Counted from the stretch's first letter, positions 601-51,226 are shown. The stretch is 64,000 nucleotides of DNA from Candidatus Jorgensenbacteria bacterium GW2011_GWA1_48_11 (GCA_001003475.1 LCPF01000001.1:328549-392548); one strand, 5' to 3'. Notes: generated from the letters alone by a model not told the origin. Program-made: numbers and translations.

Positions 601-813
601 TTTGCGGCAGGAGTTGTCAAAAATAAAAAATTGGTATATTCTGGGGTTTTCTGGGGATAACTCGAGCTTGCCGCCCCCTTTTCAAGTTCGGTCCAGAACC
701 TAGAATGAATTTGTACCTCGTTGGAAAATTTAAAAATCTGAAAGCGGATTATTCGGAGAGCGGTTTGTGAATTTTCTAATGGGGTAAAACGGTCCCAAAT
801 CAATTTTTATTTC

Positions 814-3264
814 ATGAAGAACGGAAAAATCGGTTCTAAGAAAGTGTCGAGAATGAGCGACGATAAAGTCAATGCTTATTTTTCGGAAAACGCCTTAAAG
901 ATGATGCGCAAGCGATATCTGACGATCGACGAAAAGGGCAATCAGGAAATGCCGGCGCAAATGTTTCGCCGAGTCGCCCATTATTTGGCGACCGTGGAGA
1001 AAAATTACAAACACGACGACGAGTTTGTAAAAAATATTGAGCAGGATTTTTTTGAAATTATGGCGCGGCGAGAATATACGCCGGCGGGCCGAACCCTGAC
1101 GAACGCCGGGAGCGCGACGCCTTTGATCGCGAACTGCATTGTCTTGCCGATCCACGACTCGATGGACAGCATCTTTCAAACATTGAAAGACGCGGCGCTT
1201 CTCCAGCAAGCCGGTTCGGGGCTGGGATTCGCAATCGACGAAATGCGACCGGCGATGACGAAGACCGTGAAGTCGCGCGGCAACTCGTCCGGTCCGGTTT
1301 CCTTTTTGAAGATTTATAACGAAGCTTTCGGTACGATCAAGCAGCAGGGCCGGCACGGCGCGAATATGGCGATGATGTCGGTTGATCATCCGGATATTTT
1401 GGATTTCATCAGATCGAAAGAAACGGAAGGCGAGCTCCGGAATTTTAATATTTCCGTGAAGGTTACCGACGAATTTATGCGTCAAGCGACAGAAGCACCG
1501 GACACGCAATGGTACTGCGTTTGGAAAGGCGAAAAAATGAAACCGCACAAGATTTTGCGGCATCCGAACGGCGCGGTTTACGGCGTTGAGGAAATAAACA
1601 TCACCGCTGGTCAGCTTTTTGAAGAACTCGTAAACTATGCCTGGCTGAACGGTGAACCGGGAATTGCTTTTGAAGACGCTTGGCAGAGAACCAATCCCTT
1701 GCCGGGCTTGGGGCCGCTTCGGGCGACCAATCCTTGCGGCGAACAGGTTCTTCATCCTTACGACAATTGTAATTTGGGTTCCATTAACTTGGCGGTTTTT
1801 GCGAAGGGCCGGAGCGTGGATTATGACCGGTTGCGTTTCGTGACAAAGACAGCCGTCCGTCTCATGGACAATGTCATTGACCGTTTTGATTTTCCGGTGC
1901 CGCAAGTGACGGAACTCGCCAAAAAGAATCGCCGGATCGGATTGGGCATCATGGGTTTTGCCGATCTGCTTTACCAATTGGGCATTAGATATAATTCGGA
2001 AGCCGGTTTGGCGGTGGCCGAAAAAGTGATGGGTGTAATTCAGGAGACCGCCCACAAGACCTCGCGGGAATTGGCCAGGGAAAAAGGCGTTTTTCCGAAC
2101 ATCAGCCTCAGTGTTTTCAAGAAAAAACGGCTTAAAATGCGAAATGCCGCCCTCACGACCGTAGCCCCGACCGGTTCCATTTCCATGATGCTTGATACTT
2201 CTTCGGGCGTGGAGCCGAATTTTGCCCTGGCTTACGTGAAACAGGACAAGGACGGCCTGCAGTATCAGTATTTGAACAGGCATTTTGAAAAAGAACTGCA
2301 CCGGCGTCATTTTGACGAGAAGGTGATTGCCCGGATCAAGGAAGAAATTTTGAAGACCGGCAGTATCCAGGCTTTGACGGATTTGCCGAAGGATTTGCGC
2401 GACACTTTCGTGGTGGCGATGGATATGTCCGGCGAAGACCACGTGAAAATACAGGCGGCTTTCCAGCGGCACGTTGATAATTCCATTTCGAAGACGATCA
2501 ATTTTCCAAACAGCGCCACCTACGAAGACGTGCGGCAGGGTTTTGTTCAGGCTTGGAAATTCGGCTGCAAGAGCTGCACGGTTTACCGCGACGGCAGCCG
2601 CAATATCCAGATCTTGAATTTGGGGACGGGCGAAAACATCGTTTCCACCACCGAAGCGCCGACCAAGCTCGTCAAGGAAAAAGCCAATTTGGAAATTGAT
2701 AAAGGCAAGCTTTCGCCGCGGGTGCGGCCGGTTGTGATGAACGGCAAGACTTATAAAGTGAAAACCGGCTACGGCAATCTTTATATTACCGTGAACAACG
2801 ATGAAGTCGGCGCGCCTTTCGAAGTTTTTGCCACCCTGGGCAAGACTGGCGGTTTTTTCCAGGAGCAGACCGAGGGTCTTTGCCGCTTGATCTCCCTCTC
2901 GCTGCGGGCCGGCATTAAAGTGGAAGAAATCATCGATCACCTCAAAGGCATTCGGGGGCCGATGCCGACCTTTACCGAGAAAGGGACGATTCTTTCTCTG
3001 CCGGATGCGATCGCTAAGGTTTTGGAAGAGCACGTGAAAACGAATGGCCACATGAAGACCGATATGACGGTGCAAGAGATCGATAGTTTGAAAAAAGAAG
3101 TCTTGGAACCGGTTGCGGTGCACACGGCCGTGGGCGAAGAAGGAACCGCGAGATCGATGGCCGATTACGGTTTGATGCCCGGTTGTCCGGAATGCGGCGA
3201 AGCCCTGACTTTAAGCGAAGGCTGTTTGAGCTGCAAGCATTGCGGCTATTCGCGGTGCAGCTAA
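814..3264 (+). CDS. nrdJ: Class II (adenosylcobalamin-dependent) ribonucleotide reductase
   Basis: An 816-aa ORF carries the ATNPCGEQ active-site motif typical of class II RNR and a C-terminal CxxC...CxxC zinc ribbon. The antisense ORF 895-3123 is rejected. Confidence 0.9.
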   Translation: MKNGKIGSKKVSRMSDDKVNAYFSENALKMMRKRYLTIDEKGNQEMPAQMFRRVAHYLATVEKNYKHDDEFVKNIEQDFFEIMARREYTPAGRTLTNAGSATPLIANCIVLPIHDSMDSIFQTLKDAALLQQAGSGLGFAIDEMRPAMTKTVKSRGNSSGPVSFLKIYNEAFGTIKQQGRHGANMAMMSVDHPDILDFIRSKETEGELRNFNISVKVTDEFMRQATEAPDTQWYCVWKGEKMKPHKILRHPNGAVYGVEEINITAGQLFEELVNYAWLNGEPGIAFEDAWQRTNPLPGLGPLRATNPCGEQVLHPYDNCNLGSINLAVFAKGRSVDYDRLRFVTKTAVRLMDNVIDRFDFPVPQVTELAKKNRRIGLGIMGFADLLYQLGIRYNSEAGLAVAEKVMGVIQETAHKTSRELAREKGVFPNISLSVFKKKRLKMRNAALTTVAPTGSISMMLDTSSGVEPNFALAYVKQDKDGLQYQYLNRHFEKELHRRHFDEKVIARIKEEILKTGSIQALTDLPKDLRDTFVVAMDMSGEDHVKIQAAFQRHVDNSISKTINFPNSATYEDVRQGFVQAWKFGCKSCTVYRDGSRNIQILNLGTGENIVSTTEAPTKLVKEKANLEIDKGKLSPRVRPVVMNGKTYKVKTGYGNLYITVNNDEVGAPFEVFATLGKTGGFFQEQTEGLCRLISLSLRAGIKVEEIIDHLKGIRGPMPTFTEKGTILSLPDAIAKVLEEHVKTNGHMKTDMTVQEIDSLKKEVLEPVAVHTAVGEEGTARSMADYGLMPGCPECGEALTLSEGCLSCKHCGYSRCS

Positions 3265-3311: not shown

Positions 3312-3384
3312 TCCGCCCACTAGGAATCGAACCTAGAACCTTCTCCTTAAAAGGGAGCTGCTCTGCCAATTGAGCTATGGGCGG
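3312..3384 (-). tRNA. tRNA-Lys (anticodon UUU)
   Basis: The reverse complement folds as a cloverleaf: acceptor CCGCCCA/TGGGCGG, D-arm GCTCAATTGGCAGAGC, anticodon loop CTTTTAA and T-loop TTCGATT. CCA is not encoded. Confidence 0.8.
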
Positions 3385-3523
3385 GTTTAACTTTTAGAGT
3401 TTAACTTATCATTTATTTTAATTCAAGGTTGATTTTTAGAACAGTGTTCAGTTGACCGTTTAAGAATTAGAAATTAAAATGATTCTGCAATTTGATATTC
3501 GAAAAAGCATAAGAAGGTTCAGC

Positions 3524-3784
3524 TCCGCGGTAGCTCAGCGGTAGAGCGGCTCCCTGTCGAGATAATGGCAGCCCCAGGCAGTAATGTTTGGAGGAAAAAC
3601 CGGGCTAATTCGGGGAACTCTTGTATAAAGACAATCCCGAGCTAAATTCGCCCCAGGGCGATAAACGTGTAGAGACTATATACCCGGGCCCCTTAGAAAA
3701 AGGGACATGAGATAGTCCAGCCCCCTTGGCGACAAGGGAAAAACTGTAAGGAGATGGTCGTAGGTTCGAATCCTACCCGCGGAG
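3524..3784 (+). tRNA. tRNA-Asn (inferred anticodon GUU) interrupted by a 189-nt group I intron in the anticodon loop
   Basis: The 5' exon (3524-3557) reads TCCGCGG-TA-GCTCAGCGGTAGAGC-G-GCTCC-CTGT. The 3' exon (3747-3784) reads TAA-GGAGA-TGGTC-GTAGG-TTCGAAT-CCTAC-CCGCGGA-G. The spliced anticodon loop is CUGUUAA. The exon boundary is inferred from a U at the 5' exon end and a G at the intron end. Confidence 0.65.
3558..3746 (+). ncRNA. Group I intron (subgroup IC3-like, tRNA-type) inside the tRNA anticodon loop
   Basis: Core blocks resemble the small bacterial pre-tRNA group I introns (Azoarcus tRNA-Ile-like): GCTAAATTCG, GTGTAGAGACTA and a 3'-terminal G. Length is 189 nt and no ORF is present. 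Confidence 0.6.
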
Positions 3785-6995: not shown

Positions 6996-7367
6996 ATGAA
7001 AAAAGACGAAGAATTAACGCCCGAGCTTTACAAAGTGGCGCGGCAAAAAGGAACCGAGGCGCCTTTTACGGGCAAGTATTGGGATAATCACGGGAAAGGG
7101 ACGTACAAATGCGCGGTTTGCGGCGCCGAATTATTTTCCTCGGAGACGAAATTCGATTCGGGCACGGGCTGGCCGAGTTTTACCGAGCCGTCTGATTCGA
7201 GGAACGTTGAGTTGAAAGAAGATCTGAGTGGCGGCCTGCGCCGTACCGAAGTCGTCTGCAAAAATTGCGGTGCCCATCTGGGTCACGTTTTCGACGACGG
7301 TCCCAAGGAAAAAGGCGGGAAGCGTTTTTGCATCAATTCCGTCTGTTTGGAAATCGAGAAGAAATAA
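6996..7367 (+). CDS. msrB: Peptide methionine-(R)-sulfoxide reductase MsrB
   Basis: Carries the CxxC...CxxC zinc site and the GWPSF / [21 protein letters not shown] catalytic motifs. Confidence 0.9.
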
Positions 7368-7381
7368 GTTAAAATGAATTT

Positions 7382-7705
7382 ATGAAAATTTCTTTGGGCC
7401 TCAGGGCTTTTCTTCAGGCGGCCGGCGTCACAGCCTACGTGATTGTTTTCGCCTTTACGGTGCAGAATGCCGAGGCCTGGTTTACGGCTCATAACTTTCC
7501 GCCGAGCCCGATTTTGTCGATGGTCATCTTTCTTTTGACCTTCATTGTTTCGGCCCTGATCTGCAGTTCGCTGGTTTTTCTCCAGTCGGTCCGCCTTTTC
7601 GCCGAAGGCCAAAAAGACGCCGCTTGGAAATTGTTCTTTGGAAGCGTGGCTTGGCTCGCCTTCTTCCTCGTTTTTTTCGGCGCAATAACCCTGCTTACGC
7701 TTTAG
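7382..7705 (+). CDS. Hypothetical membrane protein (107 aa)
   Basis: Three predicted TM helices. No motif. Confidence 0.5.
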   Translation: MKISLGLRAFLQAAGVTAYVIVFAFTVQNAEAWFTAHNFPPSPILSMVIFLLTFIVSALICSSLVFLQSVRLFAEGQKDAAWKLFFGSVAWLAFFLVFFGAITLLTL

Positions 7706-7772
7706 GCGCTTCGGTTTTTCTCGTGAGCCAGAAGTAGAGATAAACGCCGGCTAATTATGTTAGAATGAAAAT

Positions 7773-7985
7773 ATGATCATTGACGGCCGTACTGTTGAGG
7801 GCGACGCCCGGGGCCTCCGTTATCTCCAGTCTCTGCAGGCGGATGAATCGAAGGTTTTGTTCGATGAGGCTCGCGACCACGGCAAGGCCAAATTCAAATA
7901 TTTGGACAAGCATTACGGTCTCCTCCGAACTTCGGCCGGCACCTACGTCGTCACCGACCTGCACCAGTCTTCCGGATTTTTTTAG
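7773..7985 (+). CDS. Hypothetical small protein (70 aa)
   Basis: Third-position GC bias is consistent with coding, and a TAGAAT -10-like box lies upstream. The antisense ORF 7755-8036 is rejected. Confidence 0.4.
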   Translation: MIIDGRTVEGDARGLRYLQSLQADESKVLFDEARDHGKAKFKYLDKHYGLLRTSAGTYVVTDLHQSSGFF

Positions 7986-7989
7986 GCTT

Positions 7990-8104
7990 ATGGATCCCGT
8001 TAGAAACATCCCCCTACGCCCATTTAAGAATATCAACCAGATGATCGAAGGTAATATAAACGGTCTAAATCAAACGTGGCATTTGTTCCGCTTCTAACGG
8101 GATG
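7990..8104 (+). promoter_or_regulatory. Conserved ~110-nt intergenic element, copy 1, whose 3' end includes the ATG of the downstream gene
   Basis: The 5' arm TCCCGTTAGAAAC pairs with the 3' arm GCTTCTAACGGGA. An internal block AAACGGTCTAAATCAAACGTGGCATTTGTTCC is shared with 50661-50767. Confidence 0.5.
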
Positions 8105-8314
8105 GATTTTTTAAATGCGCATCCGTTTTTGGTGATTCTGGGCGTGATCTGGACCTTGCCTTGGAAAGGCGTGGCGCTCTGGAGGGCCGCGAAACTGAAC
8201 CAGCCAAAATGGTTCGTTGCCCTTCTCATCGTGAATACCTTGGGCATCCTGGAGATCCTCTATATTTACGTCTTCAGCAAGAAGCAGGCGATCAAGAGCG
8301 GCGATTCCCAATAG
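8102..8314 (+). CDS. Small membrane protein (70 aa)
   Basis: Two TM helices. The start codon is embedded in the 3' arm of the conserved element. Confidence 0.5.
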   Translation: MDFLNAHPFLVILGVIWTLPWKGVALWRAAKLNQPKWFVALLIVNTLGILEILYIYVFSKKQAIKSGDSQ

Positions 8315-22340: not shown

Positions 22341-22401
22341 GATGCATCCTTGTCTGGTTTTTATTGGCGGCGCCGTGTTTTGAAAATGATAGAATGAATT
22401 T

Positions 22402-22797
22402 ATGCAAACCTACGCGCAATTTTACGAAGCGATAAAAAAGCCGTTCTTTGCCCCGCCGGGGTGGGTTTTCGGGACGGCCTGGGGGATCATCTACCCGCTC
22501 ATCACGATCGCTTTCATCTATACCTGCGTTCTCGTGATCCGGAAAAGGGTTCCGACCAATCTCCTTTGGGTCTTGATCGCAAACCTCATTGCCAATTTTC
22601 TCTTTACGCCCATTCAACTCGGGTTCGCCGCTCTATGGCCGGCGTCTTTGGTCATTCTCTTCATTTTCGGCACGCTCGCTTTCTTCGAATACAAAATTTG
22701 GCGTCATTCGAAAGTCGTTTTCTTCCTCCTTCTGCCGTATCTTTTGTGGGGCGCCTTCGCGACGATTTTGCAGATCACGATAACTTTCATAAACTAA
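22402..22797 (+). CDS. tspO: TspO/MBR family tryptophan-rich sensory protein (short form)
   Basis: A Trp/Pro-rich 4-5 TM protein (PPGWVFGTAWGIIYPLI). Confidence 0.7.
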   Translation: MQTYAQFYEAIKKPFFAPPGWVFGTAWGIIYPLITIAFIYTCVLVIRKRVPTNLLWVLIANLIANFLFTPIQLGFAALWPASLVILFIFGTLAFFEYKIWRHSKVVFFLLLPYLLWGAFATILQITITFIN

Positions 22798-22950: not shown

Positions 22951-23097
22951 TCATTCGTCCTGGTCTCCCAGTTCGAGCGCGATATCGGCCAGGCGGACTT
23001 CGTCTTCGTCATCGAAACACTCCCCGACTTCGTCATCGAAACACTCTTCGCCTTCGTCGTCGAGGCATTCCTCGTTCTTTTCTCCCGGACCGAGCAC
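22951..23097 (-). CDS. Candidate 48-aa highly acidic Cys-containing repeat peptide (GTG start)
   Basis: SD GGGGAGGTG is 6 nt before the GTG. The sequence is M-LGPGEKNEECLDDEGEECFDDEVGECFDDEDEVRLADIALELGDQDE. It contains a tandem 24-bp nucleotide repeat. A TGcTATAAT extended -10 lies upstream. Confidence 0.3.
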   Translation of the reverse strand: MLGPGEKNEECLDDEGEECFDDEVGECFDDEDEVRLADIALELGDQDE

Positions 23098-50106: not shown

Positions 50107-50165
50107 CGGTCCCCAGGGAAACCCGGGATGTTGAAAGTTTGCCGCCGGAAAGTTAAAATTAACCA

Positions 50166-50654
50166 ATGATCGATTCAAATCCGCTCAAAACCTCGCCCAA
50201 GGATTTTTTCCTTCACCTCTTGAGCATCATCGCCCTTTATACGAGCGCGACGGCTTTTTTGGTTTTGATTTTCCAGTACGTGAACATTTGGTTCCCGGAC
50301 GTCCTTGAAGGGGGCGGTTACTACGCCCGCTTTGCCAATTACGGCCCGATTCGTTGGTCTTTGGCGACGCTTCTGGTTTTCTTTCCGATTTACCTTTTCG
50401 TCGGCCGGTTCTTGAATAAGAACTACGAATCTAATCCAGCCAAGAGAAATCTTCGCATCCGGAAGTGGCTTTTGTATTTCACGCTTTTTGCGGCGGCCCT
50501 GATCATCATCGGCGACCTCGTTGTCCTGATCAACAACTTTTTGGAAGGGGGATTGACCATTAGGTTCATCTTGAAGGTTCTGGCCGTGTTTTTCGTCGCC
50601 GGTTCGGTTTTTTACTACTATTTTTCCGATTTGAAAAAGCACGGTACGGAATGA
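50166..50654 (+). CDS. Hypothetical membrane protein (DUF5671-like)
   Basis: Four TM helices. Confidence 0.5.
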   Translation: MIDSNPLKTSPKDFFLHLLSIIALYTSATAFLVLIFQYVNIWFPDVLEGGGYYARFANYGPIRWSLATLLVFFPIYLFVGRFLNKNYESNPAKRNLRIRKWLLYFTLFAAALIIIGDLVVLINNFLEGGLTIRFILKVLAVFFVAGSVFYYYFSDLKKHGTE

Positions 50655-50660
50655 CATGAA

Positions 50661-50767
50661 TCCCGTTAGAAGCGGCCCCAATATCCAAAAAATACTTGCA
50701 AGATGATTCATCATAATTTAAACGGTCCAAACCAAATGCGGAATTTTGTTCCGTTTCTAACGGGATG
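50661..50767 (+). promoter_or_regulatory. Conserved ~110-nt intergenic element, copy 2, ending at the ATG of the downstream gene
   Basis: The 5' arm TCCCGTTAGAAGC pairs with the 3' arm GTTTCTAACGGGA. The internal block AAACGGTCCAAACCAAATGCGGAATTTTGTTCC is shared with copy 1. Confidence 0.5.
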
Positions 50768-51226
50768 AAATTCTTCGTTTATGCCGTTATTTTGATAGTT
50801 GCGGCGGCCGTCGTCGCCGGTTTTTTTATGGTCGGTTCGCCGCAGGAAGAAAGACTGAGGCGGTTCGACGACAAACGGGTGAGCGATCTGCAGTTCCTGC
50901 AGTCGGAAATAATAAGTTATTGGCAGAATAAGAACAAATTGCCGGACGATCTCGTTGCCCTGCGCGACGACATCCGCGGCATTTACCCGCCTAACGATCC
51001 CGAAAGCGGCGCCGCTTACGGTTACGAAGTCCGGGGGCCGCTTTCTTTTTCGCTCTGTGCGAATTTTGTTTTGCCCAGCCTTGACCGGAACGAACCGGCC
51101 GTCGCCGCTCCCTATGGCCCAACCTCCTATTACGCCAGCCAGAATTGGACCCATGATGCCGGCAGCGTTTGCTTCGAACGGACGATCGACAAGGATATTT
51201 ACGGTTTGAAGACGTTAAGGCAATGA
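50765..51226 (+). CDS. Hypothetical membrane-anchored protein (153 aa)
   Basis: An N-terminal TM helix. Unrelated in sequence to the protein downstream of copy 1. Confidence 0.5.
   Translation: MKFFVYAVILIVAAAVVAGFFMVGSPQEERLRRFDDKRVSDLQFLQSEIISYWQNKNKLPDDLVALRDDIRGIYPPNDPESGAAYGYEVRGPLSFSLCANFVLPSLDRNEPAVAAPYGPTSYYASQNWTHDAGSVCFERTIDKDIYGLKTLRQ

Follow-up and report, generated by a model that had tools for sequence, protein, structure and literature searches.

Miniature inverted-repeat transposable elements, or MITEs, have as their defining features terminal inverted repeats, a target duplication, small size, the absence of a transposase, stem-loop folding, and the existence of filled and empty sites (PMC3184786). 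Here we describe a repeat from Candidatus Jorgensenbacteria bacterium GW2011_GWA1_48_11 (GCA_001003475.1) that occurs twice in a 64,000-nucleotide stretch of its genome (LCPF01000001.1:328549-392548; hereafter the window), each time on the start codon of a gene. We think it likely that these repeats are non-autonomous, MITE-like mobile elements of a large cross-phylum family inserted one base into start codons (A/TGNA), and that expression of the interrupted genes is kept by translation across the insert. Like other bacterial MITEs, such as the Correia elements of Neisseria and Nezha of cyanobacteria, members of this family measure about 100 nt, have terminal inverted repeats (TIRs) and target-site duplications (TSDs), lack a transposase gene, form a long stem-loop, occupy many unrelated loci, and show filled and empty orthologous sites; co-transcription with neighbouring genes is listed as further common ground among bacterial MITEs. 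Correia elements duplicate TA, carry 26-bp repeats, and are confined to one genus. Unlike them, the present family duplicates 4 bp (TNNA), conserves only 11-13 terminal bases, has lineage-specific interiors, is common to many phyla, and sits overwhelmingly on start codons.

The 4-bp T..A target duplication and the CC(C) termini of the family also resemble those of piggyBac and IS1380. IS1380 elements, as catalogued in ISfinder, end in CC and generate duplications of 4-5 bp. The piggyBac transposons duplicate TTAA (with the variants TAAA, TCAA, CTAA, and TATG) and have the termini CCCTT, CCCTC, or CCCAT; IS1380 is the prokaryotic outgroup used for them (PMC10813416). Kinship with these cut-and-paste transposons is a lead that we put forward as a hypothesis only, as no transposase was linked to the family here.

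Donation of a start codon by a repeat has precedents in the REP2 repeats of Neisseria and the inverted-repeat units of Borrelia (PMC3184786). These units supply a whole initiation region of their own and lack a TIR/TSD signature, whereas the present family rebuilds the start from the last base of the element plus duplicated host bases and keeps the original start upstream. Mycobacterial interspersed repetitive units (MIRUs) and Rickettsia palindromic elements (RPEs) are precedents for selfish repeats that are tolerable through being translated. MIRUs reportedly lie between the genes of operons and hold small open reading frames (ORFs) whose ends overlap the stop and start codons of their neighbours (Supply et al. 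1997); RPEs reportedly insert in frame inside genes and are translated (Ogata et al. 2000). MIRUs, however, are direct repeats without TIR or TSD, RPEs lie within coding regions, and neither duplicates a start codon or is common to phyla, unlike the present family. REP sequences and REPINs, which go with RAYT, are similar in that they are short hairpins outside genes whose stem is conserved and whose loop varies, and REP doublets form hairpins of about 100 nt; yet REPs have a 5' GTAG-type motif, lack a target duplication, and are species-specific, none of which holds for the present family. A full-text literature search (arm sequences; MITEs in the Candidate Phyla Radiation or groundwater phyla) returned only primers and unrelated papers, and no family described with start-codon duplication, cross-phylum sharing, and selection for an open frame.

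Two repeats with duplicated start codons

An earlier note on this DNA had reported an element of about 110 nt with a second copy 42 kb away, and both copies are where it placed them, 108 nt (copy 1) and 105 nt (copy 2) in length (Table 1). The 13-nt terminal inverted repeats it described are complementary at 12/13 positions in each copy, the single mismatch being A.C in copy 1 and G.T in copy 2. Its conserved internal block is equally real: the 22-mers AAACGGTCYAAAYCAAAYGYGG and TTGTTCCGYTTCTAACGGGATG are confined to two places (8058-8079/50720-50741 and 8083-8104/50746-50767), with 0.00 shared 22-mers expected from shuffles. Each element starts right past an upstream stop codon, as the note had seen (stops at 7985 and 50654). 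Sequence beyond the element is unrelated between the copies, which excludes a segmental duplication.

What had been overlooked is a direct repeat. The hexamer that holds the downstream start codon recurs at the left end of the element, so that the junctions read ATGGAT/element/ATGGAT in copy 1 and ATGAAT/element/ATGAAA in copy 2. The long-range stem had been described as containing the start ATG together with its ribosome-binding region; only the A of the ATG belongs to the stem, as part of the closing T-A pair, and no ribosome-binding region lies within it. The predicted folding of copy 1 on the + strand is unexceptional (-25.7 kcal/mol, z -0.87); that of copy 2 is strong (-32.3 kcal/mol, z -3.65).

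A family with conserved ends and unrelated interiors

A genome-wide motif search, which the earlier note had proposed, was run on one genome per species with the pattern CCCGTTAGAA-N65-95-TTCTAACGGG. It returned at least 119 loci with the exact arm pair, in Patescibacteria of many classes, Omnitrophota, Planctomycetota, Desulfobacterota, Nitrospirota, and others; the family statistics given below are drawn from loci among the matches listed (L001-L119). Relaxing the search of the same loci to at most 1 mismatch per arm and any spacing gave 158 arm pairs of 24-128 nt, among them bare hairpins with loops of 4-7 nt. Across the family the interior varies from 4 to about 100 nt, and interiors are unrelated between lineages and to the block of the window copies, which was seen in this genome only. 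We know of no repeat that matches the terminal sequence CCCGTTAGAA. BLAST against plasmids found chance fragments only.

The boundaries of the element are set by its closing pair. The base outside CCCG and the base outside CGGG are complementary in 96% of copies, as against 45% in controls, and we therefore define the element as Y-CCCGTTAGAA...TTCTAACGGG-R. Each end has 11 conserved bases and 2 variable, mutually complementary bases. Arm positions 0-12 from the ends pair in 89-100% of family copies; positions 11 and 12 are variable in sequence yet complementary within an element in 89% and 98%, and between elements in 42-46%. A sibling family with the arms CCCGCNCYTTCT.../...AGAARGNGCGGG shares the closing pair, the 4-bp repeat, and the start-codon position (Table 1).

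Three further arrangements involving these ends were seen. At L015 7674-7895, two abutting elements share one hexamer and so create the perfect palindrome TTCTAACGGG-ATTCAT-CCCGTTAGAA, which suggests insertion beside an existing element end. In one phage lineage (L139-L143, IMG/VR), an orthologous intergenic site holds a hairpin of 91 nt that has the same 12-nt arms but lacks a 4-bp flanking repeat; it probably differs in kind from the insertions of the family. In the metagenome-assembled genome DX4.bin27, an element lies within a longer inverted repeat flanking a 2.7-kb segment that encodes a 686-aa secreted protein (L007 2167-5033, L004, L048), and this longer repeat was found on three contigs.

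Target-site duplication and evidence of mobility

A perfect 4-bp direct repeat adjoins the closing pair in 86/156 copies. Permutations gave a mean of 13 and a maximum of 22, and control hairpins with other 4-nt ends had a flanking repeat in 0/104 cases. The repeat is mostly TNNA (TGAA 17, TTCA 15, TAAA 13, TTTA 11, TGAG 7). Where T or A is missing from the outer repeat positions, a direct repeat is still favoured over an extended inverted repeat (8/13 and 13/20 copies), which argues for a duplication of 4 bp rather than 2 bp.

Copies also lie inside and close to one another at unrelated sites. In L034, an element at 264-363 is nested within another at 180-383; in L089, three near-identical 110-nt copies and a fourth, shorter one occupy four separate genes in a stretch of 8 kb. 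The evidence is clearest at lysS. In L054 this gene is filled, with an element at 2262-2371 between ATGAGT and ATGAGC-GAACAAG. Its orthologues in L136 (87% amino-acid identity) and L138 (90%) are empty and have a single ATGAGC directly behind a -10 box, and that in L145 (75%) is likewise empty. As TGAG is single in the empty orthologues, the repeated TGAG must be host sequence that was duplicated on insertion. The lysS gene of L137 (88%) holds an element of the sibling family, with arms TCCCGCCCTTTCT/AGAAAGAGCGGGA, at the identical nucleotide and with the same TGAG repeat.

The hallmarks of a MITE, apart from a cognate autonomous element, are found in this material: terminal inverted repeats, a target-site duplication, small size with no transposase gene, stem-loop folding, many unrelated loci including nested ones, and, for the family, filled and empty orthologous sites at lysS. 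We regard insertion as well supported for the family. One of the two possibilities raised in the earlier note, a MITE whose terminus donates a start codon, thereby gains support from the target-site duplications, the nested copies, and the filled and empty sites.

Insertion at start codons

In 67/155 copies the element falls exactly at the beginning of an ORF that is 50 aa or longer. Copies with a TGAA/TTCA duplication are on start codons in 29/32 cases, where 9.2% would be expected over non-disruptive TGAA sites (p = 3e-27); the expectation over all TNNA sites is 2.5%. The geometry is A/TGNA/(Y...R)/TGNA: the original start codon is kept on the left, and the last purine of the element joins the duplicated TG to form a new ATG, or a GTG where the closing pair is C-G. 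The interrupted genes are diverse and include topA, atpA, lysS, murB, glmU, ftsK, priA, dnaJ, secF, fmt, a uvrD-like helicase, and glycosyltransferases (a diversity judged by eye on 18 proteins, without a Pfam scan). Start-codon copies with similar interiors have the same orientation to the gene in 15 pairs as against 1, and that one is a single element counted on both strands.

Left flanks contain -10-like motifs in 35% of cases (background 30%) and Shine-Dalgarno (SD)-like motifs in 20% (background 18%). A preference for leaderless genes or for transcription bubbles was rejected because these motifs occur at background frequency. Two side observations concern initiation signals. SD-like purine motifs (GGAGG, AAGGA, and similar) are found in start-codon copies 63 times in the sense and 12 times in the antisense direction, concentrated 20-40 nt before the right end, which is too distant from the gene's ATG for an ordinary ribosome-binding site. 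In the window, the motif TAnAAT-GAAnnT-ATG, a -10 box about 7 nt before a start codon, recurs at 7347-7382, 7754-7779, 22383-22408, and 50131-50166, which makes many of this genome's genes look leaderless or close to it.

Proposed translation across the insert

In the right arm, TTC TAA CGGG ATG, the three reading frames differ. One frame stops 4 nt ahead of the gene's ATG, a second stops at a TGA that overlaps the gene's start in an ATGA context, and the third is open and in the frame of the gene. In 20/48 copies the left-ATG frame runs through the interior without a stop; control frames do so in 15% of cases and shuffles in 12.6% (p = 8e-6 and p = 5e-7). When restarts near stops are allowed, a relay to the gene's start is available in 35/48 copies, compared with 56% in shuffles (p = 0.013). 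The two window copies have such routes in different forms, copy 1 as a single upstream ORF (uORF) and copy 2 as two (Table 1), and translation in silico of the lysS elements of L054 and L137 gives a single uORF each, ending in an ATGA overlap.

The uORF peptides begin M-[NSD]-P-V-R and many end in F, but what they have in common is the translated arms; their interiors are unrelated. The window copies differ by a frameshift, and only one of the four substitutions in their conserved block is synonymous. Because the peptides share only the arms and a frameshift separates the window copies, whatever importance the ORFs have lies in serving ribosomes as a track, not in their protein products. The left ATGs stand 4 nt and 1 nt past the upstream stops, from which we infer that each site was a tightly coupled operon junction whose coupling the relay would preserve.

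These features suggest how an interrupted gene could stay expressed. The original ATG and its upstream signals would remain to the left of the insert while a new ATG or GTG is made at its right end. Ribosomes would start at the left ATG, coupled in the window to the upstream gene's stop at a distance of 4 nt or 1 nt, read a short ORF through the element, terminate at the right-arm TAA or at the start-overlapping TGA (ATGA), and reinitiate on the gene. In copy 1 this would involve one ORF of 35 codons, and in copy 2 a relay of two ORFs joined by ATGA overlaps. A scan predicted no promoter on the + strand inside either window copy. One candidate promoter in the window copies, TTGCAA...CATAAT, was rejected since its spacer is only 10 nt.

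Counterevidence and alternative explanations

Several observations weigh against our interpretation. For the window copies no empty site was found; the copies are identical and present in all readable strain contigs, and their closest other relatives are only about 65% identical (60-65%), in a glycerate-kinase neighbourhood without synteny. The window copies are thus old and fixed, and their mobility is drawn from that of the family. GTDB loci contained no orthologous flanks. An exact 26-mer for the empty site of copy 1 gave 0 matches in metagenome contigs, a negative that carries no weight since this collection is not exhaustive for JGI data; the subfamily pattern likewise gave 0 matches there, though it is present in JGI contig Ga0209210_1001868 (L123). 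A search for a transposase or an autonomous element with these ends was also negative: about 0.9 Mb of loci contains no arm pair spaced by 0.3-5 kb with a transposase between the arms. Translation across the insert has its own difficulties. The left-ATG frame has internal stops in 28/48 copies, 13/48 have no plausible relay, and the left start codon is absent in 19/68 start-codon copies. Other routes of expression must exist. The case for termination-reinitiation, read from sequence only, is of moderate strength. Covariation at arm positions 11-12 would be compatible, too, with a hairpin that has its own function, and the enrichment on start codons could come from selection instead of targeting; on this last point, the presence of two arm families at the identical lysS nucleotide argues for targeting.

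A bolder version of the transposon interpretation is possible, though we hold it with less than even confidence. The elements may belong to a cross-phylum transposon superfamily that actively homes to start codons, has the termini YCCCG...CGGGR, and comprises at least two arm families, those of CCCGTTAGAA and CCCGCNCYTTCT. Evolution would have shaped its ends to neutralise the insertion: ATG or GTG is rebuilt by the last base, the three frames of the right arm give a stop, the possibility of an ATGA overlap, and an open passage, and the interior is kept open for ribosomes. If so, insertion into essential genes would be nearly harmless and maintained through termination-reinitiation, and the two arm families at the same lysS nucleotide would represent independent homing events.

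The earlier note had also entertained a riboswitch- or attenuator-like cis-regulatory RNA. Under this explanation, the repeats would be conserved as riboswitches, attenuators, or translational operators whose stem occludes the start codon, and several features are in keeping with it: the long-range stem can form in both window copies, as can a local hairpin with four G.U pairs over the AUG; the orientation of the element is fixed relative to the gene; and arm positions 11-12 covary. We nevertheless judge it quite unlikely. No Rfam family matches either copy at the gathering score or at E<=10, the interior is unconserved between lineages, and the downstream genes are functionally unrelated, diverse housekeeping genes. 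In the covariation check suggested in the note, the mismatches of the stem lack the sense-strand G-U excess expected of RNA (5 G.U versus 7 A.C). Local structure at the 3' end across the family is no stronger in the sense (-8.9 kcal/mol) than in the antisense direction (-9.7 kcal/mol; p = 0.33), and a family-wide anti-start hairpin was rejected on this ground, the local AUG hairpin being an observation from the two related window copies. The 4-bp target duplications, nested copies, and empty orthologous sites, moreover, make insertion evident. The uORF peptides lead to another functional explanation, in which the unit is a small protein gene (for example, the one for the 35-aa MDPVRN... peptide) and the inverted repeats are incidental. 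Left-ATG ORFs are indeed open across the element above chance, and all peptides share their first residues and many their last; but these shared termini are merely translated arms around unrelated interiors, and the frameshift between the window copies and the low share of synonymous changes make this extremely improbable.

Other kinds of mobile DNA deserve consideration as well. The repeat could be a REP/REPIN-like hairpin moved via single-stranded DNA by an HUH enzyme (RAYT or IS200/IS605-type), its flank being a recognised cleavage or target tetranucleotide and not the duplication left by a staggered cut. Sizes that run from 24-nt bare hairpins to 128 nt with the stem alone conserved, the covariation of the arms, and the failure to find a transposase bounded by the same ends, as expected if a single-copy RAYT-like gene acts in trans, would all agree with this. 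HUH elements (IS200/IS605, REP), however, insert beside a fixed target without duplicating it, whereas the tetranucleotide here is variable and duplicated from the host, as the single TGAG of empty lysS orthologues indicates. The flanks are RTNNAY with a duplicated core, a 5' motif of the GTAG type is absent, neither arm is by itself a palindromic REP unit, and the same stem sequence is found across phyla while REPs are species-specific; an HUH origin is therefore unlikely. Alternatively, a site-specific recombinase (Xer/dif-like, integron attC-like, or an invertase) might use the arms as half-sites, in which case the element would be a mini-cassette that had integrated or a promoter that can be inverted. 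A right arm, a hexamer, and a left arm in series would give a perfect arm-6 bp-arm palindrome, of which one full site exists at L015 7780 where two elements abut, and the arms contain GTT and AAC triplets. Yet the core is variable between copies and host-derived, the GTT box precedes the AAC box in the reverse of attC order (RYYYAAC ... GTTRRRY), no arrays adjoin an integrase, the fixed orientation of the interior relative to the gene gives no sign of inversion, and viral contigs contain no full sites, so that we consider a recombinase site very improbable. Bulge-helix-bulge introns, attC, dif/Xer sites, and invertons were each rejected on anatomy.

Consequences for annotation and genome biology

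If the repeats are mobile elements as we propose, uncultivated bacteria of the Candidate Phyla Radiation, Omnitrophota, Planctomycetota, and Desulfobacterota harbour mobile hairpins of a very common family that escapes current annotation, and gene calling is affected since start codons can be misassigned. It would also amount to a strategy of transposon tolerance for compact genomes, namely to land on the start codon of an essential gene, duplicate the codon, and rely on translational coupling. Such elements would put termination-reinitiation and uORF relays to a natural test among organisms whose translation is little studied, and would serve as a compact natural coupling cassette.

Several public assemblies, processed with different gene callers, carry what looks like a spurious call at this site. 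In the equivalent of window 7755-8036 (L120, L122, L123), a reverse-strand ORF of 84 aa is called over the upstream gene and the left half of copy 1, in place of the forward gene of 70 aa, a mis-annotation for which the element is probably responsible.

Coordinates and other features of the window

Coordinates of the two copies, their parts, and their neighbours are collected in Table 1, which also lists a degenerate third copy. The latter is followed by a copy of the interior block, AAACGGTCCCAAATCAA, at 786-802, 12 nt ahead of the ATG of the gene at 814. The whole region (717-802) may be a rearranged or nested older insertion.

Table 1. Positions of the elements, their parts, and adjoining genes (window coordinates unless a locus is named)
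Feature	Position	Strand
Element copy 1, from closing T to closing A (also the A of the downstream ATG)	7995..8102	+
Left terminal inverted repeat, copy 1, TCCCGTTAGAAAC	7995..8007	+
Right terminal inverted repeat, copy 1, GCTTCTAACGGGA; in-frame TAA at 8095-8097	8090..8102	+
Left target-site duplication TGGA, copy 1; duplicated original start ATG at 7990-7992	7991..7994	+
Right target-site duplication TGGA, copy 1	8103..8106	+
Interior block of copy 1, common to copy 2; specific to the subfamily of this genome	8058..8089	+
Predicted local RNA hairpin over the gene's AUG, copy 1 (10 pairs, 4 of them G.U)	8081..8107	+
uORF of copy 1, 35 codons (MDPVRN...HLFRF*), from the duplicated left ATG across the whole element to the right-arm TAA, 4 nt before the gene's ATG	7990..8097	+
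Downstream gene of copy 1, 70-aa DUF5652 membrane protein; start codon rebuilt by the element	8102..8314	+
Upstream gene of copy 1, 70 aa; stop codon 4 nt ahead of the left ATG	7773..7985	+
Element copy 2	50661..50765	+
Left terminal inverted repeat, copy 2, TCCCGTTAGAAGC	50661..50673	+
Right terminal inverted repeat, copy 2, GTTTCTAACGGGA	50753..50765	+
Left target-site duplication TGAA, copy 2; duplicated start ATG at 50656-50658	50657..50660	+
Right target-site duplication TGAA, copy 2	50766..50769	+
Interior block of copy 2, common to copy 1	50720..50752	+
Predicted local RNA hairpin over the gene's AUG, copy 2 (about -17.8 kcal/mol)	50740..50774	+
uORF1 of copy 2, 16 codons (MNPVRSGPNIQKILAR*); TGA overlaps the ATG of uORF2 (ATGA)	50656..50706	+
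uORF2 of copy 2, 21 codons (MIHHNLNGPNQMRNFVPFLTG*); TGA overlaps the gene's ATG at 50765 (ATGA)	50703..50768	+
Downstream gene of copy 2, 153-aa protein, hydrophobic N-terminus, no Pfam hit on record	50765..51226	+
Upstream gene of copy 2, DUF5671; stop codon 1 nt ahead of the left ATG	50166..50654	+
Degenerate third copy (CCTCGTTGGAA...TTCTAATGGG), without an intact 4-bp repeat	717..783	+
Sibling-family copies	L105 713-816, 5853-5960, 7146-7253; L106 5901-5947; L066 4143-4201; L137 1406-1500	

Elsewhere in the window, a tRNA gene at 3312-3384 (-) and a free-standing Rfam match to a group I intron at 3438-3739 (+; 56.7 bits) are separated by about 50 nt, both just downstream of a large gene at 814-3264. 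Positions 23001-23072 hold three tandem 24-nt repeats (CGTCTTCGTCATCGAAACACTCCC-like).

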